From contig JAQULK010000001.1 in assembly GCA_028718635.1 (NCBI GenBank), positions 607,834 to 671,833 of the forward strand: a stretch of DNA of 64,000 nt. The letters are read 5' to 3'. The translations under genes and the position numbers were made by a program. Shown here piece by piece: positions 8,645 through 46,467 of this stretch; the first letter of the stretch is position 1; the number at the start of each line of letters is the position of its first letter. This stretch comes from Minisyncoccota bacterium. GTDB taxonomy: Bacteria; Patescibacteriota; Minisyncoccia; Phycocordibacterales; UBA9973. The notes below the pieces were generated by a model. That model did no database searches and had not been told where the DNA came from. It saw only the letters and a list, made by a program, of their open reading frames with translations.

Positions 8645-10462
8645 TTAAAATAAAGTGGCTTTGATACGTCTAACACCTTGCGCAACTGCTTCTTCTTTTT
8701 GAATTTTAAATTTGCCCAATTCACCCGTATTGGAAACGTGCGGACCTCCACAGAATTCTCTGCTGAAATATCCTGTTTTTTCGTCTCCGATGGAGTAAAC
8801 TTTTACCATTTCTCCATATTTTTCATTAAAAGAATGTGTAGCGATTTTTTCTGCATCTGCTTTAGGCATTTCCACAAAACCAACCGGCAACTTTTCCGCA
8901 ATTTTATCATTTACAATTTCTTCCACTTTCTTCTTTTCTTCTTCGGTCATTTTTTGCGAATGAGTAAAATCAAAACGCAATCGCTCGCCGGTAATATTGC
9001 TTCCTTTTTGCATTACATGATTGCCGAGTACTTGCTTCAAAGCAGCATTCAGTAAATGTGTAGCAGTATGCAATTTTTTAGCTTCTTCCCCGCCGTCTGC
9101 CAGCCCGCCTTTAAACATCCCAGCAGAAGCAGAACGGGATTTTTCCTGATGATCCTTCAAGGCTTTATTTATTTCATCTTCGTCTACTTTGAATCCTAAG
9201 TCTTTGGCGGTGTTGACCAACAGCTCGATGGGATTTCCGTGTCTTTCAAAAAGAGTAAAGATAAATAATCCGGAAGCCGTATTTTTGTCTTTTAATATCG
9301 GAATATCTCCTGCTTTTTTTATGTTGCCTAATTTTGCAGCTTCCAGGTCAATACGGTATCTTTCAATTCCGTCAAAAGGCTTTTTAAATAATTTTTCTTC
9401 CTCCCTGATAACTGAAATAATATGATCAAATTTATTTTTTATTTCAGGATAAACTTTGTCATAAATTTCAGATATTAGAGAATTAAGTTCAATCCAGAAA
9501 TTATCTGAAAGTTTGATAATTGAGGCTTTAGAAAAAACTCTCCGAAGAAGACGGCGCAAAATATACCCGCGGCCAGTGTTAAAAGGCGTGACCTCGTCTA
9601 TGATCATAAATACTGCTGTACGAAAATGATCAGCAATAATTCGAGCAGAACGCAAATCATAATTTGCGCTTTTTTCTTTTATTAAATCCATCAACGGCTT
9701 GAACAAATCCGTCTCAAAAATATCATCTTTCCCTTGCACTGCCATTACTACTCGCTCGAGGCCCGCTCCGGTATCTACATTGCTTTGTTTGAGTTTCCCA
9801 ATTACTTTCCCATCAAACTTTTCGTATTCCATGAAAACATCGTTCCAGATTTCAATAACTTTCTGCTCCCCGTCAGCTTTCATGTATTCTTCTTTACTTA
9901 AATCTCCCAATCCTTCTTGCGTGATATCATAAAACATTTCAGTGTCAGGTCCACAGGGGCCATTGTCCCCCACGCTCCACCAATTCGATTTTGCGCTCAT
10001 ATAATAAATGCGATTTTCAGGGATATATTTTTTCCAAATATTAAAAGCTTCCGTGTCTTTGGGTGCGTTTTCATCACCTTCAAATACAGTTACATAAAGA
10101 CGTTTTGGGTCCAACCCTAAACCTTCCTCTTTGGAAGTTAAAAATTCATAGCTCCATTTTATAGCTTCTTCTTTAAAATAATCTCCAAGAGACCAATTGC
10201 CCATCATTTCAAAAAAAGTGTCATGAGTTTTATCCCCCACTTCGTCTATGTCTTGAGTGCGCACACACTTCTGAATGTTTACTAATCTGCTACCCATCGG
10301 ATGCTCCTCTCCTAGAAGATATGGCACAAGAGGTTGCATACCTGCAGTATTAAATAAAACAGAAGGATCATTTTCGGGTACTAGAGAAGCAGAAGGAATT
10401 ATTTTATGTCCTCGACTTTCAAAAAATTTTAGAAACCTTAATCTAATTTCGTCTGATTGCAT
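8645..10462 (-). CDS. alaS: Alanyl-tRNA synthetase, short form (catalytic plus editing domains; no C-Ala domain)
   Basis: N-terminus FESRGH..IPSASLVP.NDPSVLFNTAGMQP ... QKCVRTQDIDEVGDKTHDTFFEMMGNWSLGDYFK. C-terminus HTATHLLNAAL...CGGPHV editing-site motifs. Confidence 0.8.
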   Translation of the reverse strand: MQSDEIRLRFLKFFESRGHKIIPSASLVPENDPSVLFNTAGMQPLVPYLLGEEHPMGSRLVNIQKCVRTQDIDEVGDKTHDTFFEMMGNWSLGDYFKEEAIKWSYEFLTSKEEGLGLDPKRLYVTVFEGDENAPKDTEAFNIWKKYIPENRIYYMSAKSNWWSVGDNGPCGPDTEMFYDITQEGLGDLSKEEYMKADGEQKVIEIWNDVFMEYEKFDGKVIGKLKQSNVDTGAGLERVVMAVQGKDDIFETDLFKPLMDLIKEKSANYDLRSARIIADHFRTAVFMIIDEVTPFNTGRGYILRRLLRRVFSKASIIKLSDNFWIELNSLISEIYDKVYPEIKNKFDHIISVIREEEKLFKKPFDGIERYRIDLEAAKLGNIKKAGDIPILKDKNTASGLFIFTLFERHGNPIELLVNTAKDLGFKVDEDEINKALKDHQEKSRSASAGMFKGGLADGGEEAKKLHTATHLLNAALKQVLGNHVMQKGSNITGERLRFDFTHSQKMTEEEKKKVEEIVNDKIAEKLPVGFVEMPKADAEKIATHSFNEKYGEMVKVYSIGDEKTGYFSREFCGGPHVSNTGELGKFKIQKEEAVAQGVRRIKATLF

Positions 10463-10577
10463 CCCGTTAGAAGCAGGTTGCGGTCACCATACCGCAATTA
10501 TACTTAATTATGCTATTAAATTTTGTATTTCTTTTAAACATTAAATATATTTAACTGCGACCGCGGCTTCTAACGGG
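10463..10577. mobile_element. Start-codon-associated palindromic MITE-like element, copy 1, abutting the alaS ATG
   Basis: Terminal inverted repeats CCCGTTAGAAGCAGGTTGCGGTCA / TGCGACCGCGGCTTCTAACGGG. They are flanked by direct repeats ATGCAAT (10456-10462 and 10578-10584, minus sense). Confidence 0.6.
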
Positions 10578-10590
10578 ATTGCATACAACT

Positions 10591-11076
10591 TTATTTCACC
10601 GGTTGATCTATTTCTTCAACAATTTTTCTAATAGGTTTTTCAAGAATATTTATTAAAACTAGTATTAAAAGTACTAAGACAGTAACAAGTATGGCTAGAC
10701 TATAAAGTCCGAAACCAGCCGCCATACCGATACCTGCAGTAACCCAAAGCCCACCAGCGGTAGTAAGGCCTCTAAGCTGTGAACCATAAAGCATTATAGA
10801 ACCAGCACCCAAAAAACCGATACCAACGACAATTTGTGATGGAATCATTACTGGGTTCAAGCCTGGAAGGTTTATATATTTTTGCACCAACGCTTCTGAA
10901 ACCAATACAAAAACCGCTGAACCCAAAGAGACAAGAGCATGTGTTTTCATGCCAGCATCCTTGTGAACAAAGAATCTTTCTGCACCCACTAAAAGCCCTA
11001 AACCTACCGCTACTACTAATTTCAAAATAACATCTCCGTTTTGTATAAAAAATTGTTCCATCGGATAATTATACAA
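10591..11076 (-). CDS. MgtC/SapB family membrane protein
   Basis: LKLVVAVGLGLLVGAERFFVHKDAGMKTHALVSLGSAVFVLVSE is the MgtC signature. Confidence 0.7.
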   Translation of the reverse strand: MYNYPMEQFFIQNGDVILKLVVAVGLGLLVGAERFFVHKDAGMKTHALVSLGSAVFVLVSEALVQKYINLPGLNPVMIPSQIVVGIGFLGAGSIMLYGSQLRGLTTAGGLWVTAGIGMAAGFGLYSLAILVTVLVLLILVLINILEKPIRKIVEEIDQPVK

Positions 11077-12292: not shown

Positions 12293-12410
12293 GTTTTATT
12301 CGTAAACTCAAATATAATATTTTTGCCGGTACGGATTTTTTGAAGCTTAAAAAATCCTGAAATTCTCGCGCCGTCGCGCTCGAAACCCCTTAAAAACATT
12401 ATATTTGAGT

Positions 12411-12938
12411 TTACGATTCCATCAGCTTTTTGTAAAGCTCAAAGGTCGCACGGGCATCAGAGAGAGCAGAGTGTGGACGCTCGTTTTTAATACCAAAATG
12501 CAAGCACAATTCACGCAAAGAAAAATGCTCAAAATTTTTATTATTATGCAACTTCGCCCAAGCGATAGAGATCGTATCTAATTTATGATAATGCATGGTA
12601 TTTATGGTCTCGATTTTATTAAAGACATATTCTAAAAATCCTGCATCAAAGGCAACATTGTGTCCAACCATAATGCAGTCTTTAACTTTTTTAGAAAAAA
12701 TTTTTATCGCTTCTTTTAGATCAAGCGCATCCTTCCAATCCTCTTGATTAAAATGATTCACTTTAATAGCAGCTGGGTCAGCGTTTTTAATGTATTCCGG
12801 TTTAATTTTTAATTCAAATTCCTCAATCACATCAAGAGTTGATGACGTAAACACACAACCAATCTCAATAATCTCATGCTTCAGTAAACTTAAGCCAGTG
12901 GTTTCTATATCAATAAAAGCAAAATTGTGTTTTCTCAT
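12411..12938 (-). CDS. DnaQ-like 3'-5' exonuclease (DEDDh; epsilon-like)
   Basis: Exo I motif FIDIETTGL, Exo II motif GHNVAFD, Exo III motif HSALSDA. Confidence 0.7.
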   Translation of the reverse strand: MRKHNFAFIDIETTGLSLLKHEIIEIGCVFTSSTLDVIEEFELKIKPEYIKNADPAAIKVNHFNQEDWKDALDLKEAIKIFSKKVKDCIMVGHNVAFDAGFLEYVFNKIETINTMHYHKLDTISIAWAKLHNNKNFEHFSLRELCLHFGIKNERPHSALSDARATFELYKKLMES

Positions 12939-13656: not shown

Positions 13657-15015
13657 TTATATTGGCAAATTCGTAGGCGGAGAAGCTTCTTTGGATTCGA
13701 TACGTTCAAGTGTAGGAACTTTCAAGATCTGACCTGGGAAGTGCCAGATTGTCGCAAGCTCTTCAACATTCAAAACATAAGTTTCGTGATGAGCATAGGC
13801 ATTTATTACAGAATCAAAAGGCCATTTCCAATGATGCTTTGAGAAAAGATGATGCCGAAGCGGAAGATGAAAAAAGGCACGCTCGCGATATTCATGAAGC
13901 ATTCTATTTGCCAGCATCATCACCGTTTCATTAGAGGCAAGAAAAGTACCGCTATAAAAATCCGCCTGAGCTGAATTTATACGATAAAATTCATTACAAT
14001 CAGGTCTGGCATATTGACGAAAGAGGAGACGCATGTTTCTTCTATTGCTCAAATTAAATACTTCTTTTTTTCCTATATACATTATGCGAACACCAGTTTC
14101 AAAACCTATCTTGGAAGTTTTGGCAGACATTGCCGCTACGGCATTTTTCAAAAAATCAGCAACACGAACCTCTATTCTTTTTGGTCCCTCACCCTTAAAA
14201 TCATCTTTAACAGCAGTATATGGTTTCAAAAATCTGAGCATTTCTTTTTTTGCCTCTTCTACCCAGCTATGTGGAACGTTATCAGAACCTGGTTTTGGTG
14301 TAATGACGATCTGGATCCATCCTTGCTCCCCTTTCTTGAGCGAACCGAAAAATTCTATCACTGGAGAAATAGGGTCAACTTTAAATTCTTCTTTTGGGTC
14401 TTTGTCTAATCCGAAATCAACATATGTTTTAATAGGATAAGCAAAATGTTTTGTCAATTTAAACTCGCATCCCCAGCCATTCCAAGCGCTCTCGGGACTA
14501 ATCTCATCCACAGCCAAAGTGTAATCCTCAACTACTTTTACCTGCGCTTGCGGATATTGCGCATACATCTGAGTCTCGATAAGATCTTTGATGCGTGAAG
14601 GCGTTCGTATATAAAAATGTACTTGTCCGTCGATAGACGCTATCTCCAATGAAAACCAAAACCAGACAGCGCCTTGCCAAAATTCTTCCTTGCCTCCTTT
14701 TATACTCCAATGATAAAGGGCATTAGTAAAAAAAAGTTCCATTGCTTTCGGGCTTCGCAATACCTCGCGCGGTGGGACTATTTCAAGCAACACAAACTCT
14801 ATGCCAGAAATAAAATCCTGCTGAACATAATGTACCCAAAGCTTCCAAGCGAGCCAGCCTAAAAATATCGTTCCGGCCAAGGCCAAAACCCCTATTTCGA
14901 GGTTGTATCTCCAAATCAAAAAACCCAGGATCACAACCACAATCCCAATCCAATAATTTTTTATAAAATCAAAAATCTTTTGCTCAATAGTTGGCCCCGT
15001 TTTTGCTTCCGCCAT
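13657..15015 (-). CDS. Hypothetical membrane protein (two N-terminal transmembrane helices)
   Basis: ORF only; no family recognised. It contains a half-copy of the REP hairpin at 14659-14672. Confidence 0.3.
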   Translation of the reverse strand: MAEAKTGPTIEQKIFDFIKNYWIGIVVVILGFLIWRYNLEIGVLALAGTIFLGWLAWKLWVHYVQQDFISGIEFVLLEIVPPREVLRSPKAMELFFTNALYHWSIKGGKEEFWQGAVWFWFSLEIASIDGQVHFYIRTPSRIKDLIETQMYAQYPQAQVKVVEDYTLAVDEISPESAWNGWGCEFKLTKHFAYPIKTYVDFGLDKDPKEEFKVDPISPVIEFFGSLKKGEQGWIQIVITPKPGSDNVPHSWVEEAKKEMLRFLKPYTAVKDDFKGEGPKRIEVRVADFLKNAVAAMSAKTSKIGFETGVRIMYIGKKEVFNLSNRRNMRLLFRQYARPDCNEFYRINSAQADFYSGTFLASNETVMMLANRMLHEYRERAFFHLPLRHHLFSKHHWKWPFDSVINAYAHHETYVLNVEELATIWHFPGQILKVPTLERIESKEASPPTNLPI

Positions 15016-15051: not shown

Positions 15052-15079
15052 CCCAGACAGCGCCTTAGGCGCTGTCTGG
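15052..15079. repeat. REP-like palindromic hairpin, copy 1
   Basis: CCCAGACAGCGCC TTAG GCGCTGTCTGG. The stop codon of the Y1 transposase gene lies in the loop. Confidence 0.6.
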
Positions 15080-15745
15080 TAAATCTTCTTCTTCAAGTAG
15101 AGAAGTTTTTCCTCTCTCCTTTCTAACTATTGAAACAATTTCGTCACAATGTTTTTTAAAATTTCTACTCCCATTAAAAATTTCTAATATCCTTTTTCCT
15201 TCCTCTTTTGAAACAATTTTAAAATTATTATTCTCGTATTCGTAATCACTAGCAATCGAAAGAGTTACTTTATTTTTTGGAATATTGTGAATTTGATAAT
15301 TTTTATTTACATAGCCAATGATTTTGTTAAAATAATTTTCATTACTAATGATTTGCGATTTAAAGGTTCCTTGAAAAAGTGACCCTGTGCGAGAATTTTT
15401 AATATTAAAGTAGGAAGTATATCCCGCTTGCAATTTTTGCATAAATTTAGCTATACCTCCATCCACTAACTGTTTTAAAACAAAATGAAAATGATTCGGA
15501 TTTAAACAATAAGTAGCAAAAGAAACCAATGGCTCTTTGGATACCTTAGACAACGCCTTAGGCACGGTCTTATCTTCATTTTTTCTTGCATTTCTTATGC
15601 TACCGATAATTTCTGTTTGATTAAATTCAGAAATACTTTCAATAAAGCGATCTAAGTCTTTCCTATTAAGAAAAATATCCCTTTTATCTACTCCACGATT
15701 GTAAATATGGTGGTACTCGCCCGTAACGATTGGTTGTTTTCTCAT
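15065..15745 (-). CDS. Y1 HUH transposase-like protein (IS200/RAYT-like TnpA homolog)
   Basis: YHHIYNRGVDKRDIF aligns to the IS200 TnpA start. NPNHFHFVL is the HxH motif. A C-terminal Y-containing helix is present. REP-like hairpins lie at both ends. Confidence 0.55.
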   Translation of the reverse strand: MRKQPIVTGEYHHIYNRGVDKRDIFLNRKDLDRFIESISEFNQTEIIGSIRNARKNEDKTVPKALSKVSKEPLVSFATYCLNPNHFHFVLKQLVDGGIAKFMQKLQAGYTSYFNIKNSRTGSLFQGTFKSQIISNENYFNKIIGYVNKNYQIHNIPKNKVTLSIASDYEYENNNFKIVSKEEGKRILEIFNGSRNFKKHCDEIVSIVRKERGKTSLLEEEDLPDSA

Positions 15746-15760
15746 TCTGTAAGTATAACA

Positions 15761-15785
15761 CAGACAGCGCCTAAGGCGCTGTCTG
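15761..15785. repeat. REP-like palindromic hairpin, copy 2
   Basis: CAGACAGCGCC TAAG GCGCTGTCTG. Confidence 0.6.
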
Positions 15786-16716: not shown

Positions 16717-16743
16717 CCAAACAGCGTCTTAGGCGCTGTCTGG
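16717..16743. repeat. REP-like palindromic hairpin, copy 3 (two mismatches)
   Basis: CCAAACAGCGTC TTAG GCGCTGTCTGG. Confidence 0.5.
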
Positions 16744-24856: not shown

Positions 24857-25648
24857 TTACTGAAGGTTAGATGAAGAAGAACCTGTTTTTACAGACGCGG
24901 TTACCGATGCCAAAGCATCAGTAATAGTTTTTATTGAGGCAAAATTTGTCATATCATTAAAGAGAGCGATGCCGAGAGCTTCTCCGTCTAAATTTAACAC
25001 TAAGCCTCCGGCATTTGATTTAGTAACATTGATGTCAACATTCTTATTCCCTTCAAAAATAGAAGAAGATATGCTATTGCCAAAAAGTAAAACTCTCTGT
25101 CCCGCTTTCATTTTATCCAAATCCCCAAAAACTGGTACTGAAAAAGATAATTTATTTTTCACGTCAACTGTAGAGCCTATCTTCAGAAAAGAAAATCCGG
25201 ACTTGTCAGCTAAAATGAAATCTGCCTTGAATTTTCCGCTATCATTTTTTACATAATAAACTTCTTTGTCGGGAACGAGAGTCGCATCGGCTGCAATAAT
25301 TCCATCAGCAGAAACTACAAACCCTCTTCCTGCTCCCACTTCGACAGTTTTCAGATCTGCGTCTTGGGTTTCCTTAGTTATGGAAAACACAGCGGATTTA
25401 TTTTTGGCAATAGCATCTACTACCAGGTCTTCTTCTTTGATGACCACTGTTTGAACTGTTTTTTTCCCCTCCACTTGTTGAATTTTCTCAATTGTCTGCT
25501 GGACCACGTGATTAATCGGAGTAGTGATCGACGGCGGAGCCTGTTGCATTAAGGTCACAGTCGTTATACCTGTCGCAATGGAAGTAACAAAACTAAGCAA
25601 GATAGCGAGCAAAATAAGTTGAGTTTTATTTAATTCCTTGATATCCAT
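24857..25648 (-). CDS. Trypsin-like (HtrA/S1C-like) domain protein, probably catalytically inactive, membrane-anchored
   Basis: GAGRGFVVSADGIIAADATLV has no His where HtrA has TNNHVV. NAGGLVLNLDGEALGIAL has Ala in place of the GNSGG serine. Confidence 0.4.
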   Translation of the reverse strand: MDIKELNKTQLILLAILLSFVTSIATGITTVTLMQQAPPSITTPINHVVQQTIEKIQQVEGKKTVQTVVIKEEDLVVDAIAKNKSAVFSITKETQDADLKTVEVGAGRGFVVSADGIIAADATLVPDKEVYYVKNDSGKFKADFILADKSGFSFLKIGSTVDVKNKLSFSVPVFGDLDKMKAGQRVLLFGNSISSSIFEGNKNVDINVTKSNAGGLVLNLDGEALGIALFNDMTNFASIKTITDALASVTASVKTGSSSSNLQ

Positions 25649-25726
25649 CCCGTTAGAAGCAGGTCGCGGTCAATAATAATTTCATTTACTTTCCCGTCAA
25701 AAACTGCGACCGCGGCTTCTAACGGG
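25649..25726. mobile_element. Start-codon-associated palindromic MITE-like element, copy 2
   Basis: Terminal repeats CCCGTTAGAAGCAGGTCGCGGTCA / TGCGACCGCGGCTTCTAACGGG. ATGGAT direct repeats at 25643-25648 and 25727-25732 (minus sense). Confidence 0.6.
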
Positions 25727-25735
25727 ATCCATACC

Positions 25736-27022
25736 CTAATGATACCATTTTTTTAGTTTAGTCAAAATTTTTACTAAAACTTTTATAGTATAATCAATAT
25801 CCTCTTTTGTTGTATCTCTGCCTAAAGAAAAACGCACTCCACCAGTATCATCATACCAAGGGTTCCCCTTGGCAAGTTTTACCAAGGGGAACCCTTGGTA
25901 TTGTGCTTGACGAATTGCTTTGATTACATAAGATCCTCCGCTTTCCCCGCTCTTGCACGCGCTCTTGGCCGACGTCATTATCCCCTTTGCAGAAAGTTCA
26001 ATCACTAATAGATCGCTCGGAATTTTTGGAAATGTTACATTTACATTATTCGGCAATCTATTTTTCAAATCTCCATTAATTATATAACCTTGCGGACGTT
26101 GGACGTCCGATTTTCGGACGTCCAACGTCCGCAACCTCTCCATAAAATAATTACGAAGTTTTTCCAAGCGTTTGCTTTCTTGTTCTTTAATATTTTGCGC
26201 TGATTTTAATGCACAGGAAAATTTTAAAATCTCCGGCAAATTTTCCGTGCCTGGACGAATTCCTCCTTCTTGATCTCCCCCGCCGAACACCTTCGCAAGC
26301 TTAATCGTTTTCTTTTTATAAAGAACTCCGACTCTGCCAGATTCCTGTATCTTTGAGCCGGAAAGTGAAAGCAAATCTATACCCAATCTCTCCACGTTTA
26401 GATCTAGATAATTTACCGCTTGTACTGCATCCGTATGGAAGAGCGGGAAAATACACCTCTCCCCAACCCTCTCCTTATTAAGGAGAGGGTGCTGAAAGCG
26501 GGTGAGGTTCTTCCAATGCTTAATTGCCTTTGCAATTTCTTTTATTGGCTGTATTGTCCCTATTTCATTATTCGCATACATTACCGAAACAAGTACAGTA
26601 TTTTTTTTTATTTCTTTTTTTATTTTTTTTGGATCTACTATTCCATTTGCTTCGACTGGTACGATCGTTATTTCTGCCAGCTTTCTTTCTGCTAACAACT
26701 TGCAAGTCTCAAGAACCGATGGATGCTCTATGTTAGTTGTTACAATATGCGGCATACGGAGGCAATTCCTCCGTACGGAGAAATTGCCTCCGTATGCTTT
26801 TTCAAACCAAGCCCACACTACTCCCTGTATTGCAAGATTGTTGCTTTCTGTACCACCACTTGTAAAAATTATTTCTTCTGGTCTAGCGCCCAAAATATCA
26901 GAAACTTCTTTCCGTGAATTTTGAAGTTTAATTTTTGCTTCTACCCCAGCCCTATGTACAGAACTAGAGTTTGCCGACGCGCTGGCGGCATAATCTAGAT
27001 ATATTTCATTTGATTTAGGCAT
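25736..27022 (-). CDS. Cysteine desulfurase (class V aminotransferase, NifS/IscS-like) carrying four in-frame palindromic insertions
   Basis: IYLDYAASA...FTSGGTESNNLAI and the PLP-lysine region SGSKI match cysteine desulfurases. The protein is about 40 aa longer than usual; the extra segments YQGFPLVKLAKGNPW, LRTLDVRKSDVQRPQ, RFQHPLLNKERVGER and AYGGNFSVRRNCLRMPH each sit on a palindrome. Confidence 0.75.
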   Translation of the reverse strand: MPKSNEIYLDYAASASANSSSVHRAGVEAKIKLQNSRKEVSDILGARPEEIIFTSGGTESNNLAIQGVVWAWFEKAYGGNFSVRRNCLRMPHIVTTNIEHPSVLETCKLLAERKLAEITIVPVEANGIVDPKKIKKEIKKNTVLVSVMYANNEIGTIQPIKEIAKAIKHWKNLTRFQHPLLNKERVGERCIFPLFHTDAVQAVNYLDLNVERLGIDLLSLSGSKIQESGRVGVLYKKKTIKLAKVFGGGDQEGGIRPGTENLPEILKFSCALKSAQNIKEQESKRLEKLRNYFMERLRTLDVRKSDVQRPQGYIINGDLKNRLPNNVNVTFPKIPSDLLVIELSAKGIMTSAKSACKSGESGGSYVIKAIRQAQYQGFPLVKLAKGNPWYDDTGGVRFSLGRDTTKEDIDYTIKVLVKILTKLKKWYH

Positions 27023-27052
27023 AAAAATAGTATATATTGAAATTACATGAAT

Positions 27053-27129
27053 CCCGTACGAAATTACGGGATTTGATTATCACATTAACACTTCTACCGT
27101 GAAAAATAAATGGTAGGATTTCGTACGGG
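27053..27129. mobile_element. Start-codon-associated palindromic MITE-like element, copy 6, plus-strand orientation, variant interior
   Basis: ATGAAT-CCCGTACGAAAT ... ATTTCGTACGGG-ATGAAC. Direct repeats ATGAA at 27047-27051 and 27130-27134. Confidence 0.5.
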
Positions 27130-27585
27130 ATGAACACAAAGCTTCAAATTGTTTTTTTTATTTTGATTGGCATTATTATTCTACTCGGAATCGTTTGGGT
27201 TATCGTTACAGAAAAGCGCTTAAAAAGATTTTTCCTTGGCAAGAAAGCAAAAGATTTGGAAGACAACATCATTTCATTAGAAAATAATATAGCCGAATTA
27301 AATAAAACGAAGGACGCGATGCATAAAGATATCGCCGGAATAAACACTAAACTTAAAAAAAGCATTCGCGGACTGGAGACAATACGTTTCAATCCTTTTC
27401 CTGATCAAGGCAGTAATCAAAGTTTTGCTATTGGAATGCTTAATGAAGAAAATGACGGTTTGGTGATTTCAAGTTTATATTCTCGCGAACGAATGAGCGT
27501 ATTTGCCAAGCCCATCAAAAATGGAAAATCCGAGTACGAACTCACAGCTGAGGAAAAAGAAGTTTTGAAAAAAGCCCAAATATAA
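27130..27585 (+). CDS. DUF4446-like membrane-anchored coiled-coil protein
   Basis: N-terminal transmembrane helix, a coiled coil, then RFNPFPDQGSNQSFAIGMLNEENDGLVISSLYSRERMSVFAKPI, which resembles the DUF4446 core. Confidence 0.45.
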   Translation: MNTKLQIVFFILIGIIILLGIVWVIVTEKRLKRFFLGKKAKDLEDNIISLENNIAELNKTKDAMHKDIAGINTKLKKSIRGLETIRFNPFPDQGSNQSFAIGMLNEENDGLVISSLYSRERMSVFAKPIKNGKSEYELTAEEKEVLKKAQI

Positions 27586-29579: not shown

Positions 29580-31229
29580 TTAAAATATGTTAAAATATTT
29601 TAAGATAAATAATTGCCCAAGTGGCGTAATTGGTAGCCGCGCAAGACTTAAAATTTTGTGACCGCAAGGTCGTGTGGGTTCGATTCCCACCTTGGGCACC
29701 AGAATAGAACTAGACGGTTTTTCAGAAACCAAAATGCGGGACGCGCGAAGCGCGTCCCAAGGATTCCCGCCGAATTCCCCCAACGAATTCAGAATTTTTG
29801 GCGCGCTTGCGCGCACTAATTTTTCGCCAAGAAGCAGGTTCGAGCCAAAGATTTCTTTGGCTTTGACCTTTTTTGCAAAAAGGTCATCATCAGAAGCAAT
29901 TTTGTCCAAGGATTGAGCGTCTTTTATCCATTCTTTCATCGGTTCGAGCCAATCATTCTGCTTGTGTGAAAGAGAGGTTATTTCTTCTTGGAGAGACTTC
30001 TTTTCAGATAACAACTTTGCTTTTTGATTTCGATAATCTTGTTCATCAATTACTTGGTCTAAATATCCTGTAAGAAGTCGCTCTAACTTTTGTGAAATGA
30101 CCGATAGTCTTGTTTCGTTCTCTTTCACACAAGCAGTCAAAGACGGGGCGGAATTGTTAAAATCTTTTTCTGCCATTTTTAACAATTCTTCCGCCCAGTC
30201 TTTGGGCAAAGAAACTTTTTGTATTTCGGATGATAACTGGCGATCCAATTCTTTTTCTCGAACGGCAGACTCGGAGCATTTTATAGTTTTAGATTTTTTT
30301 GTACAACGATAATATGTGTATTCATGGACATTACCATTTTTCTGCCGTTTGAATTTGTGTTCGCCAGTTATCATCATCCCACAAGAAGCACAGGAAATGA
30401 GTCCGCAAAATGGTTGAGGTTCGTTTTGTGGTTTTCGTTCGGGTTGTCCACGGAGTTTCAACATTTCCTGTGCTTCATCAAAAAGTTTCATTGAAATAAT
30501 TGGCTCATGAATACCTTCATGAATTTCTCCGCCATATTTAAACAAACCGATATAGAACGGATTAGAGAGGATAAAAGACGCTTTGGTTTTGGAGATTCTC
30601 TTTCCGGTTCGAGTGGTAACGCCGGACTTTGCCAAAAATGATGACACATCTTCCAGTCGCATATTTCCTTTTGTGTATTTCTCAAAAGCCAAGCGCACGA
30701 TGCGAGATTTTTTCTTTTCCACCACGATTGTTTTTGTTCGTGAATCGTTGAGATAACCCACTGGCGCTTGGCTTGGGAATATACCCATTCTGACTTTTTG
30801 GCGAAGTCCGCGTTTCGTATTTTCGGAAAGAGAATCGACATAGTATTTGCTTTGTACAAAGGCCATAGAGAGCGTAAATTTGCCCTGTGGCGTACTTTCA
30901 AACCAAAACTGTGGGAACTTAAGGCTCACAAGCAATCCGATGTCTAAAAAGTAGACAATCTTTCCACCGTCCACCGAATTGCGGGCCAAACGATCTGGAT
31001 GCCAAGAGAGAATACAATCTGCATCGCCCTTTTCAATACGCTTCATCATTTCATTAAAAATTGGACGACCTGGAATTTTAGCAGATTGTTTTTCGATAAA
31101 CTCTTGGGCGATGTTCAGATTTTCTCTCTTGGCGAACTCCCGCAATTCGGTGAGTTGTGCGTCAATTGATAAAACCTGCTTGTCTTCGACATCGGTTGAC
31201 TTGCGAGCATACAAAAAGAATTTTTGCAT
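29580..31229 (-). CDS. Large serine recombinase (integrase/invertase). The ORF reads through tRNA-Leu(TAA) on the opposite strand before reaching a stop.
   Basis: Resolvase catalytic N-terminus (YARKSTDVEDKQVLSIDAQ), recombinase domain, zinc ribbon (CGLISCASCG...YYRC), coiled-coil C-terminus. The last ~45 codons lie inside the 149-bp inverted repeat. Confidence 0.8.
   Translation of the reverse strand: MQKFFLYARKSTDVEDKQVLSIDAQLTELREFAKRENLNIAQEFIEKQSAKIPGRPIFNEMMKRIEKGDADCILSWHPDRLARNSVDGGKIVYFLDIGLLVSLKFPQFWFESTPQGKFTLSMAFVQSKYYVDSLSENTKRGLRQKVRMGIFPSQAPVGYLNDSRTKTIVVEKKKSRIVRLAFEKYTKGNMRLEDVSSFLAKSGVTTRTGKRISKTKASFILSNPFYIGLFKYGGEIHEGIHEPIISMKLFDEAQEMLKLRGQPERKPQNEPQPFCGLISCASCGMMITGEHKFKRQKNGNVHEYTYYRCTKKSKTIKCSESAVREKELDRQLSSEIQKVSLPKDWAEELLKMAEKDFNNSAPSLTACVKENETRLSVISQKLERLLTGYLDQVIDEQDYRNQKAKLLSEKKSLQEEITSLSHKQNDWLEPMKEWIKDAQSLDKIASDDDLFAKKVKAKEIFGSNLLLGEKLVRASAPKILNSLGEFGGNPWDALRASRILVSEKPSSSILVPKVGIEPTRPCGHKILSLARLPITPLGQLFILKYFNIF
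29625..29701 (+). tRNA. tRNA-Leu (TAA), CCA encoded. Its last nucleotides form the end of the 149-bp inverted repeat.
   Basis: Acceptor GCCCAAG/CTTGGGC, anticodon loop CTTAAAA, long variable arm, T-loop TTCGATT, ACCA tail. Confidence 0.8.
29695..29843. repeat. IR1-left: 149-bp inverted repeat overlapping the recombinase 3' end and the tRNA-Leu(TAA) 3' end
   Basis: Reverse-complement match to 31426-31574 with one mismatch. Confidence 0.85.
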
Positions 31230-39254: not shown

Positions 39255-40220
39255 ATGAAAGACAATCAAGAAAATGAAGAAGAAGTTGTAGTAGAAGAAG
39301 AGACAAAAGAAGGAAGAAGAAAAGAGAAAAGAAAAATAAAAGAGCAGAAAAACAGTACTCTCGACATAATACTGGCAGTTCTGTTTGTATCCATCACTAT
39401 TGCCGGATGCATTTGGGGCATTAGAATTGAGTTCCCAGGTGCTTGGGTGGCAACAACTATTCTCCTCCTTCTAGAGGGAATAGTCTTGTCGTTAAGTCTC
39501 AAAAAAATCAAAGTTGGTCACAGAGCACAATACCTGTATTTGGGCCGAAGGATAGAATACTTTGTGAAAGAAGGTTTGCATGTTGTACCGTGGCCTTTTT
39601 TTACAAAAAAAGAAATCGATTGCAGGGCGAAAACTACAACCCTAGATGAACAACACATCTTCACTAAAGATAATGTCGAAGTAAAATTGGGAAAACCATC
39701 CATAGTATCACAGGTTATAGATTTAGATCTATATCAAAATTTAGATACAGAAAACCTACCTGGGTTAATGGACGACGTAGTGGACGAAAATGTTCGCTAT
39801 AAAATAAGAAACACCCCATATGAAAAAGTTCTGGAAATGAAATTCAGTGTTGAAGAACATGACATCGAACATACTCTAGGAAATTGGGGGATAAACATCG
39901 TAAGAATAATTGTACCAAACGTCATTCCCGTAAATGAAGATTTCATTAAAGCTCAAGAGCTCAAAGTAAAAGAGGACCTTGAGCGCAAAGGACAGAGAGT
40001 GCAGGCACGACATCATGCTGATCTTATCAAATTCTTTTCTGGAACTGAAAAGTTGGGAGAAAAAGGTCCTGAAGGTCCTGGGCTTCCTGTTGAGCTAGCC
40101 TATGAGGCTGCTTTGATCCATATGGACAAGGCAGAAAAGAAAAAACTGGCGTCCAGCACTTTTGGTCTAGACGCTAACACAGTAGACACCATTACTAAAG
40201 CGGTAATGACAAGGAGGTAA
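39255..40220 (+). CDS. SPFH/band-7 (stomatin/prohibitin/flotillin-like) domain membrane protein
   Basis: N-terminal transmembrane helix. The SPFH core VPWPFFTKKEIDCRAKTTTLDEQHIFTKDNVEVKL is followed by a coiled coil. AAGGAG Shine-Dalgarno present. Confidence 0.65.
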   Translation: MKDNQENEEEVVVEEETKEGRRKEKRKIKEQKNSTLDIILAVLFVSITIAGCIWGIRIEFPGAWVATTILLLLEGIVLSLSLKKIKVGHRAQYLYLGRRIEYFVKEGLHVVPWPFFTKKEIDCRAKTTTLDEQHIFTKDNVEVKLGKPSIVSQVIDLDLYQNLDTENLPGLMDDVVDENVRYKIRNTPYEKVLEMKFSVEEHDIEHTLGNWGINIVRIIVPNVIPVNEDFIKAQELKVKEDLERKGQRVQARHHADLIKFFSGTEKLGEKGPEGPGLPVELAYEAALIHMDKAEKKKLASSTFGLDANTVDTITKAVMTRR

Positions 40221-40223
40221 GGA

Positions 40224-40670
40224 ATGATTAAAAGAACGATTTTTTTAATCGCCCTCGCTACTGCCATAATCTTTGCGGTGGTGTGGGGTTCAAATTGGAT
40301 CGCGACAAAATGGTCCAAAAAAGAAGCAAAAAAAGCGGCTGAGGAAAAGGCGAAGGAAATCGCCAAGACTCAGCCACCGACACAAACAGCTTCACGACAG
40401 AAGGTCGAGGCACTCGTTCTGGACAATGAGTGCCTCACACCCTGTAGTGGGAATATTCCTGCAGGGAGATTCAAAATCCGGACGGACGGACATCCGCTCC
40501 GGATAAAGTTCAAGGGGGTGCACGACTGGGTCGAGCACCCAGCAGAGGGAGAAGCCAAGTCTCCCTCGGGAGTAGAGCCTGGCGAGGCACAATTCGTCTC
40601 GTCAGATAAAGAAAACCCGCACGTAAAAGTGTGGGTATACAAAAAAATTACCGTTCCAGGAGGGCGGTAA
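40224..40670 (+). CDS. Membrane-anchored protein with a markedly GC-rich C-terminal part; possibly an NfeD-like partner of the SPFH protein
   Basis: N-terminal transmembrane helix, a K/E-rich linker, a C-terminal beta-rich domain. GGAGG Shine-Dalgarno. Local GC is near 55% against a ~33% background. Confidence 0.35.
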   Translation: MIKRTIFLIALATAIIFAVVWGSNWIATKWSKKEAKKAAEEKAKEIAKTQPPTQTASRQKVEALVLDNECLTPCSGNIPAGRFKIRTDGHPLRIKFKGVHDWVEHPAEGEAKSPSGVEPGEAQFVSSDKENPHVKVWVYKKITVPGGR

Positions 40671-40707
40671 ATGGCCAAAATCGCGCTGGCCACGCAAATA
40701 AAATCGA

Positions 40708-40750
40708 AAGGGCATTAACGACCTAAGTCGGAATGCCCTTTCTTACTTTC
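40708..40750 (+). terminator. Rho-independent terminator
   Basis: AAGGGCATT...AATGCCCTT stem followed by TCTTACTTTC. Confidence 0.5.
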
Positions 40751-40806
40751 TAGTGGAATATCCACCCCGTCTCGCGAGCGAGCCACCCCTGCCGAGGGGA
40801 ATTTTT

Positions 40807-41793
40807 TTACTTTTTATTTACCCTCAGTAATTCTACAACAAGAGCGACCATCTTGTCTTTGTGCCTTGGATCGCTTTCAGCTATTAAAAGAGTAATTGCA
40901 GTTAACCCTGTAGGATTGATATTGCGCGCTCCTCTTACCCTATTTTTTCTTAAAAACCAGATAAACGCAAAAGCTCCAGATCTTTTGTTGCCATCTATAA
41001 ACGGATGATTCTTCACCATAAAGTAAAGCAAATGCGCGGCTTTTTCCTCAAGTGTCTCGTAAACATCCTTCCCGCCAAAAGCCTGCATGACGTTGCCGAC
41101 AATGCCTTCGATACTTCCCCTTTCTCTTTCCGTGGCAAAAATATCCATGGCTTCAGACTTTTTTATTAATTCATTTTTAAGTTCAGAAATAGCTTTCAAA
41201 AGTTCTACGCCAGCAAGTTTTATCCTCTTTTTCGTCACACCAGCTTTTGTAAGTAAATCTTTATCATATGCATCAAGCTTCGCCCAAGTAATAGAATATT
41301 CTTTTACAAGATCTAAAATAGTTTTTGGGTCAAGAATTACATGTGTTGGCAATAATGCTTGAATATCAGAAACATTTTTCAAAAACTGATCGTAATTTTT
41401 AAGAACTACTTTTTTGTTTATGGTGTAGCCTTTTACAAGATGGTCATGTAAAGTCTTAGTCGCCCACTGACGAAATAATGTAGCTGTTTTGCTGTTAACT
41501 CTGTAGCCAACGGAAATAATCGCATCTAAATTGTAAAGTTGAGTACTATAAATTTTTCCATCGCTAGCAGTTATTCGGAATTTCCGAATAACTGATTTTT
41601 TATTCAATTCCTGATTTTTAAAAATATTTGCTAAGTGTTCGTTTATAGTTGGAACCGTAACTCCAAAAACCTCGGCTATCTGCGCTTGGGTAGCCCAGAT
41701 AGTCTCTCGAGAAAAATCTCCACGCAATTCTATCGCTCCATTTTTGGCTTGATAAATTATAAGTTTATTTTTTATTTGTTGTTTATCTTTCAT
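40807..41793 (-). CDS. RhuM-family N-terminal domain fused to a Fic/Doc (death-on-curing-like) domain
   Basis: N-terminus IIYQAKNGAIELRGDFSRETIWATQAQIAEVFGV...IRKFRITASDGKIYSTQLYNLDAIISVGYRVNS matches RhuM. The C-terminal HPFIDGNKRSGAFAFIWFL is the Fic motif HPFx[DE]GN[GK]R. Confidence 0.65.
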   Translation of the reverse strand: MKDKQQIKNKLIIYQAKNGAIELRGDFSRETIWATQAQIAEVFGVTVPTINEHLANIFKNQELNKKSVIRKFRITASDGKIYSTQLYNLDAIISVGYRVNSKTATLFRQWATKTLHDHLVKGYTINKKVVLKNYDQFLKNVSDIQALLPTHVILDPKTILDLVKEYSITWAKLDAYDKDLLTKAGVTKKRIKLAGVELLKAISELKNELIKKSEAMDIFATERERGSIEGIVGNVMQAFGGKDVYETLEEKAAHLLYFMVKNHPFIDGNKRSGAFAFIWFLRKNRVRGARNINPTGLTAITLLIAESDPRHKDKMVALVVELLRVNKK

Positions 41794-41928
41794 TCTCTTA
41801 TTTTACACTATTAACTTCTACCCAGCCAACGCACAAAGGGCGAATTTCGTTTACGAAATTCGCCCTTTATTAATTTCTATTGTATTTTCCCCTCTCCTTA
41901 ATTAAGGAGAGGGCTAGGATGAGGTGAA

Positions 41929-42258
41929 TTACTCACTCAAATGCACCGTTCCTGCTTCTGGATCTATCTCACCTTTAGATATCCCCAATGTATTCAGCAC
42001 AATTCCGAGGATAGTCCAAACTCCCATCATGATTGTTATCCCGACAACTCCCCAGATCATATGGTTTTTGCCAGTGGTTTTTTTTTCTTCGTTGGCTTGA
42101 TTTGAAAGAAATTCAAACACGCCATAAAGAAAATACACAATAGCTAAAGCAAACAAAAGTCCTATGAGTGGATTTATGATCATGGTATCAACGTTCCAAA
42201 TAAAACCATCAAAGGAAGATGAAGCCGCAAAAGCTATTTTTGTAGACAAAAAATCCAT
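41929..42258 (-). CDS. TrbC/VirB2-like pilin-fold small membrane protein, paralog 1
   Basis: Helix-loop-helix: a hydrophobic helix, a charged loop NQANEEKKTTGKNHMIWGVVG, then a second hydrophobic helix. This is the same layout as VirB2/TrbC pilins. Confidence 0.4.
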   Translation of the reverse strand: MDFLSTKIAFAASSSFDGFIWNVDTMIINPLIGLLFALAIVYFLYGVFEFLSNQANEEKKTTGKNHMIWGVVGITIMMGVWTILGIVLNTLGISKGEIDPEAGTVHLSE

Positions 42259-42376
42259 CCCGTTAGAGATAGGAAATGCAAAGCATTTCCGTAGTTATAT
42301 TACTTTTAATAAAAACTTTTAACATAAAATTATTTTCTCTATTATTTCAGATAATAAACTATATGATCTCTAACGG
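42259..42376. mobile_element. Start-codon-associated palindromic MITE-like element, copy 3 (variant interior)
   Basis: CCCGTTAGAGAT...ATCTCTAACGGG. ATGGAT direct repeats at 42253-42258 and 42377-42382 (minus sense). Confidence 0.55.
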
Positions 42377-42395
42377 GATCCATACTTTATTTAAT

Positions 42396-42779
42396 TTATT
42401 GATTTAGTGTGGGTAAAATAACATTAACATCATTGCTGCCAGTAAGACCAAAAGTATTGGTTAAAATATTTACAAGACCCCACAAAGCTACGATAACCGC
42501 AAAACCGATAATGCCGTAAATCACTCTATCTCTACCTTTTTTCTTTGCTTCTTCGTCACTTCCGATCATATAAGAAACAACTCCCCATACAAACCAAACT
42601 ACAGCTAAGGCGATCAAAACTGGAACAACAGCGTTAAGAAGTTGTCCTATTTTACACAACACTGAACCTATGTCTGTAATTGTTCCTGCATTACAATTAC
42701 CACCAAAAGTCGCCGCAAATGCAGCAACAGGCGCTAAACTTGAAACAAAACCTGTCAATACGATTAATTTCTTTTTCAT
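42396..42779 (-). CDS. TrbC/VirB2-like pilin-fold small membrane protein, paralog 2
   Basis: Signal peptide, a cysteine pair, then LNAVVPVLIALAVVWFVWGVVSYMIGSDEEAKKKGRDRVIYGIIGFAVIVALWGLVNIL. Confidence 0.45.
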   Translation of the reverse strand: MKKKLIVLTGFVSSLAPVAAFAATFGGNCNAGTITDIGSVLCKIGQLLNAVVPVLIALAVVWFVWGVVSYMIGSDEEAKKKGRDRVIYGIIGFAVIVALWGLVNILTNTFGLTGSNDVNVILPTLNQ

Positions 42780-42895
42780 CCCGTTAGAAGCAGGTCGCGA
42801 TCTTAATTAATTTTAAAATCTATAAAATCAGACCCACTAAATTTATACTTATAATAATTTCCCGACTATAAACCGTGACCGCGGCTTCTAACGGG
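42780..42895. mobile_element. Start-codon-associated palindromic MITE-like element, copy 4
   Basis: CCCGTTAGAAGCAGGTCGCGATC...GTGACCGCGGCTTCTAACGGG. ATGAA direct repeats. Confidence 0.6.
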
Positions 42896-42943
42896 ATTCA
42901 TAACCCCAATAATTATACCTTCTCTAAAAAATCAAAGCAAATT

Positions 42944-44543: not shown

Positions 44544-45833
44544 TTATTTTAATAATAATAATTGCAATTTAGTATTCGCGTCCTTGACCGCATCTGCTAC
44601 TGATAAATTGTTAGAAATCACCGCATTGGTCATCACGCCGAAAATATTGTCAGTGTCTTTCGGCGAAGGATCGAGCCAGCTTTTCCCATACAATGCTGAG
44701 CTATAGAAAATAGGAGAAAAGGCATCTTGAGGTTTGACGGCGAGCAAGTCCCGGCGCGCTGGAGGCACGCCCGTTGCCACGGCAAACTTTGAAGCAAAAT
44801 CCGAAGTCGCCATCTGGCTCGCTGCCAGGAAGGCTGTGCTGATATTTTTTGAAAAAGAAGAAATAGCAATTCCGGTCACCCTTGCTCTAGTGGTTTTAAA
44901 AGTGGCATCTCTGATCTGAGGCATCCCCGCGACAAAGAAATTTTGATTAGGATTTCTTTTTACTAGGGACTGCAGCTCGGAGGCATAGCCGAAATAAAAA
45001 GCTAAATCCTCCCGAGAAAAAGCGTCGTCAGAATTAGGAAATGATTTATTCCAAGAATATGCAGGATTGTTCGGATCTGCAAAATCCGTATAGAATTTTA
45101 ACATTGAAGGCAAATTGAAATTTCCAATTGAAGAATCTAAGGTCGAACCCAAAACTCCGTCCGTCTCTTTCACGATGGGGTTGCCAGCTTGCATAAAAAG
45201 AGTAGCCAGGATGTCTTTGAAATGAATGATGTTTGAAGAATATCCAAAGGCTATAGCGCTTTTTATTATTTTATTTGAATCATCTTTTTTTGTAAGGAGA
45301 GGCGCGACTTTCGCCACATCATCCCAGTAAGCCGGAGGATAGACGACTCCATTCGCATCAAGCATGCTCCTGTTGTAATACATCATAAGCGGATCAATAG
45401 AGATTGGAAAAGCTAAAATTCCGTTCTTTGTTAAAAAGACTTCTCCTGCGCCGGCAAAATTATTTTTAAATAAAGACAGAGAATAGCTCTGATACGGAAT
45501 GGTGAAAATTTTATCTGTGTAATGAAAAACCAAATTGTCAGGCAAAAAAAACATATCCGGTCCTGTTCCAGAAGCGGCTGCCTCGAGTAAATCTTGATCA
45601 AAAGTATCAGCAGATTTTTGCACATAAGTGACAGAAAAAGTAGTATTAGCATTATTAAAATCCTTCATTACGGATGACATCGTCGCCTCAGGCACTGTTC
45701 CCCATAAAACTACATCGCCCAGACTGCCCGCGCCGCCTTTGCCTATTGGAATAGCGCCAGAAAAAACCAAAATACCCAAAATACCTGCAGCAATAAATAT
45801 GATTAAAATGATTAGTTTAAAATTTCCTTTCAT
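44544..45833 (-). CDS. Extracellular solute-binding-protein-like (SBP family 1 type) membrane-anchored protein
   Basis: N-terminal transmembrane anchor followed by a periplasmic-binding-protein-like domain (GTGPDMFFLPDN, multiple W/Y-rich sugar-binding-type segments). Confidence 0.4.
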   Translation of the reverse strand: MKGNFKLIILIIFIAAGILGILVFSGAIPIGKGGAGSLGDVVLWGTVPEATMSSVMKDFNNANTTFSVTYVQKSADTFDQDLLEAAASGTGPDMFFLPDNLVFHYTDKIFTIPYQSYSLSLFKNNFAGAGEVFLTKNGILAFPISIDPLMMYYNRSMLDANGVVYPPAYWDDVAKVAPLLTKKDDSNKIIKSAIAFGYSSNIIHFKDILATLFMQAGNPIVKETDGVLGSTLDSSIGNFNLPSMLKFYTDFADPNNPAYSWNKSFPNSDDAFSREDLAFYFGYASELQSLVKRNPNQNFFVAGMPQIRDATFKTTRARVTGIAISSFSKNISTAFLAASQMATSDFASKFAVATGVPPARRDLLAVKPQDAFSPIFYSSALYGKSWLDPSPKDTDNIFGVMTNAVISNNLSVADAVKDANTKLQLLLLK

Positions 45834-45949
45834 CCCGTTAGAGACAGGTCGCGATCTTCGCTACCTGTGAATTATTGTTAATATAGTTGATCGTCATAAA
45901 ATTATTGATTTATTTATTATATTACTTCGTGACCGCGGTCTCTAACGGG
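45834..45949. mobile_element. Start-codon-associated palindromic MITE-like element, copy 5
   Basis: CCCGTTAGAGACAGGTCGCGATC...GTGACCGCGGTCTCTAACGGG. ATGAA direct repeats. Confidence 0.6.
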
Positions 45950-45951
45950 AT

Positions 45952-46467
45952 TCATTGTTTAGTTAATATCATACCATAATGGTGGTCTCCTGCATCAATT
46001 TCTCTATCCAAAGTAAAGCCTTTTTTCTCAAACTTTTCTTCCGCCTTAGCTTTGGGAACAATAGAGGTTCCGCTCATGATCGAAGACTCTGACCAGTCGA
46101 TCAACAAAACTCTCCCCTTTGGCTTTAATATTCTTTTTATTTCTTCAATAAACTTTTCTTTATCTTCTATTTGAAAAAGTATATTTGAAACGATAACAGC
46201 ATCCGCTATTTCATCGCCGATCTTTGTTCCACCGGGCTTTTCCGCATCTCCTAAAATAATCTCGACATTGTCTAAATGAGCTTCGAGTATTTTTCTTTTA
46301 ATAGTATCCAAAAAATCTTTTTGCAATTCGACAGCGTACACTTTTCCTTTCGGCACGATGGCTCCCAGTGCGATAGAATAAAATCCAGTTCCCGCACCTA
46401 AATCCGCTACAATATTATCTTCCCTTAATCCAAAAGCTTTTAAATTTTTTACCGGATCGGTGAACAT
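45952..46467 (-). CDS. Class I SAM-dependent methyltransferase
   Basis: Motif I VADLGAGTGFYSIALG, motif II AVIVSNIL, post-II ...LKPKGRVLLIDW. Confidence 0.65.
   Translation of the reverse strand: MFTDPVKNLKAFGLREDNIVADLGAGTGFYSIALGAIVPKGKVYAVELQKDFLDTIKRKILEAHLDNVEIILGDAEKPGGTKIGDEIADAVIVSNILFQIEDKEKFIEEIKRILKPKGRVLLIDWSESSIMSGTSIVPKAKAEEKFEKKGFTLDREIDAGDHHYGMILTKQ

Follow-up and report, generated by a model that had tools for sequence, protein, structure and literature searches.

Small palindromic elements at gene start codons in Patescibacteria: a probable family of MITE-like mobile DNA

Among described systems, the closest in kind to the sequences reported here are bacterial miniature inverted-repeat transposable elements (MITEs). 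The Correia/NEMIS elements of Neisseria and the RUP and ERIC families are short and non-coding, have terminal inverted repeats and a target duplication, occur in many copies with different flanks, and are transcribed, as hairpins, together with the genes beside them; RNase III is known to act on those of Correia. Here we describe six palindromic elements of 77–119 bp in a 64-kb stretch of a Minisyncoccota genome (64,000 nt of contig JAQULK010000001.1, positions 607,834 to 671,833; hereafter the window), each adjoining the ATG of a long open reading frame (ORF), together with their relatives in other Patescibacteria. The copies constitute one family of non-coding sequences that are mobile, lie at start codons in a single orientation, and have covarying stems. 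We consider it probable that the six are members of a widespread family of non-autonomous MITE-like mobile DNA elements found at gene starts in Patescibacteria.

The general properties just listed for Correia/NEMIS, RUP and ERIC are shared by these elements, for which co-transcription is a prediction, and which are also small and non-coding, found at unrelated loci, and missing from orthologous ones; of the testable attributes of a MITE, only a cognate transposase was not found, in 1.4 Mb of loci. They differ from those families in being nearly confined to first codons, in having one orientation and a terminal base that appears to rebuild the start codon, and in having arms common to a class-level radiation, not to one genus. 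Their duplication is TG(N)1-3 and not TA, and no cognate insertion sequence (IS) was found in those loci.

Other described systems share parts of this architecture. REPINs, which are paired repetitive extragenic palindromic (REP) sequences moved by RAYT-type transposases, are likewise hairpin-forming, symmetric, non-autonomous units of ~100 bp with conserved arms and long persistence in lineages, whereas the arms of the present elements are not REP hairpins, and the elements carry target duplications and occupy start codons rather than extragenic space in general. The piggyBac/IS1380 transposons offer a lead only: their 4-bp duplication is the modal length here, and their CCC...GGG-type termini resemble the T-CCCG...CGGG-A of the elements (the left end of ISEcp1 is CCTAGATTCTACG), but the elements have an extra terminal T/A pair, a TGNN and not a TTAA target, and a variable duplication length. 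piggyBac excises precisely. Its prokaryotic relative is IS1380 (PMC10813416).

Rickettsia palindromic elements (RPEs) and the mitochondrial byp and GC-cluster elements resemble the family as palindromic mobile inserts that survive in gene-dense genomes only where the gene product is spared. RPEs are translated in frame within ORFs, and one such copy of the present family is seen. Byps, whose insertion generates a matching pair of take-off and landing codons around them, need ribosomal hopping inside ORFs, whereas the duplication described here contains the start codon itself. The cauliflower mosaic virus 35S leader shunt and the hairpin-bridged split ribosome-binding site of T4 gene 38 likewise combine a start signal, a stable hairpin and the real AUG at the base of that hairpin. 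These are single loci, either eukaryotic-viral or in a phage dependent on the Shine-Dalgarno (SD) sequence, whereas the present elements are mobile and occupy hundreds of loci in apparently leaderless genes.

The six elements of the window and their relatives

The window has ~37% GC, encodes T4SS_pilin and DUF5671 proteins, and belongs to the Patescibacteria, or Candidate Phyla Radiation (CPR). Element 1 (10463-10577, minus strand; 10456..10584 with its flanks), with CCCG...CGGG ends, adjoins alaS (8645..10462, minus); the rebuilt alaS ATG is at 10462-10460 and the upstream copy of the repeated flank, ATGCAAT, at 10584-10578, with the stop codon of the upstream MgtC gene 6 nt beyond that copy. 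Element 2 is a short, 78-nt form (25649-25726, minus; 25643..25732 with flanks) that adjoins a Trypsin_2 protease ORF (24857..25648, minus), with the rebuilt ATG at 25648-25646 and the upstream copy, ATGGAT, at 25732-25727. Element 3 (27053-27129, plus; 27047..27132 with flanks) has 77 nt and belongs to a short subfamily with CCCGTACGAAAT arms that was also found in L041 (loci fetched from other genomes are numbered L001 upward); its upstream copy, ATGAAT, is at 27047-27052 and the rebuilt ATG at 27130-27132, at the start of a DUF4446 ORF (27130..27585, plus). Elements 4 and 5 each adjoin a T4SS_pilin ORF. The first of these ORFs (41929..42258, minus) has its rebuilt ATG at 42258-42256, next to the 119-nt element 4 (42259-42377, minus; 42253..42383 with flanks; upstream copy ATGGAT at 42383-42378), a member of a GAGAT subfamily with a different inner arm that is also found in L003, L048, L073 and L116. 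The second (42396..42779, minus) has its rebuilt ATG at 42779-42777, next to the 116-nt element 5 (42780-42895, minus; 42775..42901 with flanks; upstream copy ATGAAT at 42901-42896). Element 6, with 116 nt and GAGAC arms (45834-45949, minus; 45829..45955 with flanks), adjoins an SBP_bac_1 solute-binding protein ORF (44544..45833, minus), with the rebuilt ATG at 45833-45831 and the upstream copy, ATGAAT, at 45955-45950. The ORFs are named from their Pfam matches.

These elements had been noticed in a sequence-only reading of the window, which placed six at gene starts; all are present, each beside a long ORF, with the end of element 4 moved by one base from 42376 to 42377. That reading also saw that the first 5-7 nt of each gene recur beyond the element, and this is the case (ATGCAAT once, ATGGAT twice, ATGAA three times). 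Its ~24-bp terminal repeats are found in elements 1, 2, 5 and 6 (~22-24 nt), whereas only the outer 12 bp are common to elements 3 and 4, and the CCCGTACGAAAT variant that it gave to the sixth copy is that of the third. An alignment of the six in gene sense gives ATCCCGT..GA and TC..ACGGGATG as the shared sequences of the two ends. For CCCGTWMGA, the motif of the outer arm, 0.8 occurrences would be expected in the window; there are 13, a number reached by no shuffle, and 12 of them are element arms. The RNA hairpins have predicted energies between -30.5 and -47.8 kcal/mol and z-scores between -4.0 and -6.5. Pfam alignments place residue 5 of the alaS product at profile position 1 and residue 7 of the DUF4446 protein at position 7, so that the element-adjoining ATG is the natural N-terminus of both. 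Element 6 and window sequence are also present in an independent Logan assembly, and the elements are therefore not an assembly artefact.

GTDB species genomes were scanned for exact matches to a 21-nt arm, CCCGTTAGARRCCGCGGTCRC, which was found in more than 120 listed stretches from about 94 Patescibacteria metagenome-assembled genomes (MAGs). The names of these MAGs include Nomura-, Kaiser-, Zambryski-, Wolfe-, Taylor-, Lloyd-, Sungi-, Komeili-, Wildermuth- and Tagabacteria, Paceibacterota, Minisyncoccia and others, and their GC contents, as implied by the record names, range from ~30% to ~54%. The hosts are mostly Paceibacteria/Parcubacteria lineages, and the family is not specific to one genome; the same 21-mer was not found in viral contigs. 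One complete element lies at a gene start on a 347-kb contig of a MAG labelled 'uncultured Gammaproteobacteria' (L040, CAZSQN010000001.1), which is either a mislabelled or mis-binned Patescibacteria contig or a case of the element outside the phylum. A wider search of the fetched DNA for any 12-nt inverted repeat beginning CCCGT yielded ~129 elements, including other inner-arm subfamilies and short forms of 62-79 nt.

A 12-bp outer stem, in which CCCGTTAGARRY pairs with RYYTCTAACGGG, is followed in the main subfamily by a 7-8-bp inner stem of CGCGGTC paired with GACCGCG, and a 4-nt bulge is always on the 3' (gene-proximal) arm (ACCT in 80 copies, otherwise NCCT). In an alignment of 113 copies the arms are near-invariant, and the AT-rich interior is unalignable, with weak subfamily motifs only. 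Element sizes span 45-124 bp overall, and lengths are tightly grouped at 113-121 bp (mode 115-116), with minor classes of 45, 62-66, 76-79 and 93 bp. All 12 outer-stem positions are paired in 115-117 of the 117 unique copies, and positions 10-12 covary (A:T 66/G:C 49; G:C 66/A:T 46; C:G 92/T:A 22). The 5' arm (e.g. at 42872-42895, minus) contains AGCCGCGGU, 9 nt identical to the universal 16S 530-loop, and the 3' arm resembles its complement; this likeness is probably due to chance, being not significant alone (rough chance probability ~0.16).

The sequence-only reading recognised no described element family, and we found none in Rfam or in the literature. Rfam gave no gathering-score match across the window, with noise only, at E <= 10, over two elements, and literature searches by taxon, feature and arm sequence found no report of the element. 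Its start-codon specificity, the start rebuilt from an element end, the strict orientation, the apparently leaderless context and the class-wide arm sequence are not described in the literature that we found.

Insertion sites, orientation and mobility

About 115 of the ~129 elements adjoin an ATG or GTG, so that copies in other genomes are enriched at start codons as they are in the window. The following ORFs, with a median of 197 aa, are at least 60 aa long in 92% of cases. All of the copies with the standard asymmetric arms have the same orientation (86:0, p = 2.6e-26), with the CGCGGTC arm gene-distal and the GACCGCG-ACCT arm gene-adjacent. The upstream flank consists of ATG or GTG plus 1-3 nt matching the next bases of the gene, followed by T or C. 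The duplication is perfect in 95 of 117 copies, and its length is 3, 4 or 5 nt in roughly 13, 76 and 9 copies, respectively.

One base precedes CCCG and one follows CGGG, and this terminal pair is T:A for 101 copies, C:G for 13 and another combination for three. Copies ending in C...G have GTG as the downstream start, and the upstream codon is still ATG in 9 of 12 taken from flank listings; T...A copies with an upstream GTG (L011, L039, L050) have a downstream ATG. Among copies with at most one mismatch, the only ones scored for this tally, the first bases of the upstream and rebuilt codons are A and G in nine copies and G and A in two. These combinations are most simply explained if the terminal pair is part of the element and the duplication is TG(N)1-3, so that the first base of the start codon would be donated by the element. 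Compensatory evolution of a stem pair is an alternative, but the C...G ends follow particular arm subtypes and genomes, which favours inherited element ends. The ATG-containing target duplication of the sequence-only reading is accordingly retained in part: the direct repeats are real, and the unit is better given as TG plus 1-3 nt, with the inverted repeat taking in the flanking A-T/T-A pairs.

The upstream ATG has been lost in ~10% of copies (as ATA, ACG or CTG) and is thus not strictly required. Its reading frame shows no preference (phases 30/34/36), and the stops of the resulting upstream ORFs (uORFs) are scattered over the 5' arm (16 copies), the interior (68) and the 3' arm (15), so there is neither a conserved uORF peptide nor an N-terminal extension. 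The idea of a short uORF beside the real start gains no support as a coding feature from these random frames and stop positions.

Mobility is evident from several comparisons, in keeping with the earlier proposal of MITE-like elements that are non-coding, have inverted repeats, and duplicate their flanks at start codons. We compared alaS with 80 relatives from metagenomes at 50-71% amino-acid identity, 78 of them scorable, and the alaS start is empty and unduplicated in all 78 (e.g. L121, TTAATATGCAATCAGATGAG); the syntenic MgtC-alaS loci L122, L142 and L162 are without element 1. L020 is syntenic to the window at 42.8-48 kb with 65-74% nucleotide identity and has an element at the orthologous pilin start, the site of element 5, whereas its SBP start, the site of element 6, is empty. 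Control loci chosen via alaS contain two elements in 458 kb, against six in the 64-kb window. Exact-protein look-ups for polymorphism placed the genome in one Logan assembly only, and alaS had no record.

Recognisably related interiors occur at unrelated genes in different genomes, and these are always co-oriented with the arms and the gene. Orthologues that are co-occupied (ssb in three genomes, alaS in two, and a PabA/TrpG-like gene) have duplications matching their own second codons and an interior similarity of 0.60, compared with 0.60 +/- 0.05 for random pairs, which fits independent insertions together with some hot spots. Tandem double elements separated by ATGAAT are present in L003, L110 and L116, and one 66-nt element is nested within the 3' arm of another. 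Rare copies are off target: one at 2106-2220 of L001 follows codon 9 of a MurC-like ORF at ATTAAAA and adds 120 nt, in frame and stop-free, and another at 2550-2594 of L091 has 45 nt, consists of arms only, and lies between two tRNA genes. Since such copies exist, insertion away from starts is possible, and most of its products would be removed by selection.

Rebuilt pre-insertion sites have the local consensus ATG-[A/G]-A. By a rough count, noncoding ATGAA-type sequences should rival those at gene starts, and the observed gene-start excess is ~20 to 1; this calls for real targeting (by the sequence together with some property linked to transcription or translation starts) or for positive selection. 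We tentatively infer that insertion truly prefers ATGRA-like or transcription-start-proximal sites and that selection sharpens the pattern.

The sites have a further feature in common. At 23 of 97 sites, against ~5 at other offsets, the spacing from the end of a TAnnnT hexamer to the upstream ATG is exactly 6 nt; such a hexamer lies 4-12 nt upstream in 60% of sites, and an SD-like motif is present in 15% only. Empty alaS sites have the same TAnnnT peak (30 of 73 at offsets 6-7). In the window, a candidate extended -10 box, TGGTATCAT (25739..25747, minus), matches the consensus and stops 6 nt short of the ATG upstream of element 2, a putative leaderless-type spacing that also peaks family-wide; a TATAAT box is present at 42917-42912, upstream of element 5. 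From these spacings, mRNAs in these Paceibacteria lineages would normally be leaderless or nearly so. Because the sites look leaderless, the hairpin would begin within 4-6 nt of the mRNA 5' terminus, which the duplicated AUG would itself occupy, and a masked ribosome-binding site would be the wrong model. We also considered an internal promoter that would make a leaderless transcript at the rebuilt ATG, and rejected it, as the 3' arm lacks a -10-like hexamer where one would be needed. More generally, throughout the window and in L121-L200 a TAnnnT hexamer precedes many ATGs by 6-7 nt and SD-like motifs are rare, for example at the divergent pair around 27020-27050.

Mechanism and rival explanations

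In a plausible course of events, the DNA would first be cut in a staggered way at TG(N)1-3, immediately downstream of the start codon's first base, and 3-5 bp, usually 4, would be duplicated. The upstream copy would retain the original A or G with its TG, and the 3'-terminal A or G of the element plus the duplicated TG would form the new start, leaving the ORF intact. The native promoter would still fire at the upstream A, giving an RNA of the form AUGNN-hairpin-AUG in which the element is co-transcribed as a strong hairpin directly adjoining the real AUG. A hairpin of -30 to -48 kcal/mol at the AUG of alaS or ssb should block initiation, yet copies persist, and the cell must therefore open, remove or bypass it. 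Candidate ways of coping are co-transcriptional loading on the 5' AUG followed by relay or reinitiation, shunting across the helix base, and cleavage of double-stranded RNA (dsRNA) that would regenerate a 5'-terminal AUG.

No mobilising enzyme was found in the 1.4 Mb of loci. Neither were arm pairs 0.3-4 kb apart nor an IS1380/piggyBac transposase, and a tblastn search with the ISEcp1 transposase TnpA against all of these loci and the window gave no match better than E = 2.9. The rve-type IS of the window was set aside, as its ends are unrelated to those of the elements. The only recurrent suspicious protein near elements is of a Y1_Tnp/RAYT-like family, with a member in the window (15065..15745, minus). 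In the window this gene has a perfect hairpin, CAGACAGCGCC-TWAGG-GGCGCTGTCTG, on both sides (15053-15785), with a third copy and a half copy nearby (16718-16742 and 14663-14673).

The RAYT-like genes bear on the possibility that the elements are REPINs moved by a Y1/HUH transposase of the RAYT type. The elements' hairpin architecture with covarying arms, the frequency of Y1_Tnp/RAYT-like genes in these genomes and in the window, and the vertical persistence for which REPIN-RAYT systems are known would all suit it. RAYT-like genes are not enriched near elements, however (present in 6 of 120 loci with elements and in 2 of 80 controls), and each is flanked by its own genome-specific short REP hairpins, unrelated to the element arms; the CAGACAGCGCC...GGCGCTGTCTG REP of the window is in none of the 202 fetched loci, the RAYT-like genes of other loci each having a different REP. 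Single element arms are not hairpins, being not self-complementary beyond CCGCGG, and the elements carry target duplications, which IS200/IS605-type transposition is not known to give. We therefore rejected RAYT as the mobiliser and think a REPIN origin very improbable. Still harder to credit is an invertible promoter switch (inverton), for which one could cite the 22-24-bp inverted repeats around an AT-rich segment directly upstream of a start codon and the -10-like hexamers inside some interiors; related interiors never change orientation relative to arms and gene, the arm asymmetry is 86:0, the native -10 box is upstream of the element, target duplications and empty sites indicate insertion, and an interior of ~70 bp would probably be very short for recombinase-mediated inversion. 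Integron attC sites were rejected, as the arms read 5'-..GTTAGAA...TTCTAAC..-3' on both strands, the reverse of 5'-RYYYAAC...GTTRRRY-3', and the copies are dispersed at housekeeping genes with no cassette context. Splicing of a bulge-helix-bulge or intron-like kind was likewise rejected: exon-exon pairing is impossible with a 5' 'exon' of just 4-6 nt.

Several facts weigh against a simple MITE-like element. No autonomous element or transposase with these ends was found in the 1.4 Mb of loci, and a duplication length that varies between 3 and 5 nt is unusual for a single DDE transposase. The arms are near-identical across lineages differing by more than 20% GC in which the interiors are saturated, and this conservation could reflect in-situ functional constraint, beyond selection for transposability. 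A single orientation is unexpected for a MITE with near-identical ends, the transcription starts are inferred solely from hexamer spacing, and a strong hairpin at the AUG of the essential genes alaS and ssb should block initiation, so that calling the element 'merely tolerated' is incomplete. A further set of observations lends some weight to a hairpin that is primarily a selected cis-acting RNA device, acting in mRNA stability or translation initiation and spread by a mobile vehicle: the strict orientation, the NCCT bulge always on the gene-proximal arm, compensatory changes that keep the stem, a tightly constrained length around an unalignable interior, arms invariant from ~30% to ~54% GC, and occupancy of essential genes (alaS, and ssb in three genomes). 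We hold this as a tentative possibility, since the presence of the elements is sporadic (78 of 78 alaS orthologues are without one, and the 458 kb of control loci have two copies only), the host genes have no function in common, intact duplications indicate recent insertions, and co-occupied orthologues with own-codon duplications and unrelated interiors look like independent insertions.

The problem of the hairpin at the AUG leads to two further proposals. A dedicated mechanism that neutralises the hairpin in the RNA or at the ribosome, with ribosomes that load on the 5' AUG and shunt, hop or reinitiate at the real AUG, or with the hairpin removed (e.g. by an RNase III-type cut), would account for the start codon kept at the inferred transcript 5' end in ~88% of copies, for the leaderless look of the target sites, and for the position of both AUGs at the base of one helix, in which the real AUG contributes its A and U to pairs with the final two bases of the 5' flank. 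In the frame set by a 5-nt duplication, the uORF ends at the outer-stem UAG, opposite the real AUG. We judge it quite unlikely, as ~10% of copies have no upstream ATG, the uORF stops are otherwise scattered, and there is no bulge-helix-bulge or known ribozyme motif and no Rfam match. A combined proposal, in which a transposon homes to the starts of leaderless genes and relies on an undescribed form of translation start (a shunt or 'hop' from the 5' AUG across the hairpin base, or a dsRNA nuclease that clips the hairpin and so restores a leaderless AUG, in a punctuation-like processing), seems to us unlikely; if it were true, the invariant arms would be constrained by host machinery as well as by a transposase.

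If the MITE-like reading holds, the family would be a mobile element whose niche is the start codon, keeping the gene alive by a donated first base, and common to a large part of the CPR. It would also constitute a natural experiment, at hundreds of loci, on initiation beside a very stable hairpin in reduced, apparently leaderless bacteria, and a possible bacterial case of insertion directed at transcription or translation starts. For annotation, the elements create spurious upstream ATGs, short uORFs and changes of ATG to GTG starts, all of which can confuse start calling in Patescibacteria MAGs.

Other features of the window

Further palindromic sequences are present in the window. A different element of 117 nt, with 25-nt arms (TCGTAAACTCAAATATAATRTTTTT) that are 96% complementary, lies between two minus-strand genes at 12300-12416; the stop codon of the upstream gene falls within its left arm, and its end is 7 nt before the next ATG. 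Its length is that of the main family, and its arms are unrelated. The Aminotran_5 ORF (25736..27022) contains three near-perfect palindromes of 45-49 nt (25853-25901, 26090-26134 and 26752-26797) that read in frame and stop-free, like RPE-type inserts of Rickettsia, and the Pfam match of the protein is split; a related hairpin, TACCAAGGG...CCCTTGGTA, is at 62650-62690.

The region 29506-41800 has the look of an integrated mobile region. Next to tRNA-Cys and tRNA-Leu genes it has a large serine recombinase (29580..31229), and it also encodes a 1137-aa beta-helix protein and a RhuM/Fic protein and contains the ~1-kb rve/HTH_32 IS (~38047-39044, with ends TGCACACACATATGGCGGTTT). The beta-helix gene lies between two mirror-image palindromic units of ~78 nt (31710-31787 and 36441-36518).

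At the end of the window (63840-64000), an Rfam small-subunit rRNA match covers model positions 1278-1533 within 161 nt, and beyond GTACTCAC the sequence no longer follows the 16S consensus. The gene may therefore carry an intervening sequence or have an unusual 3' domain, features of a kind often reported for the CPR.

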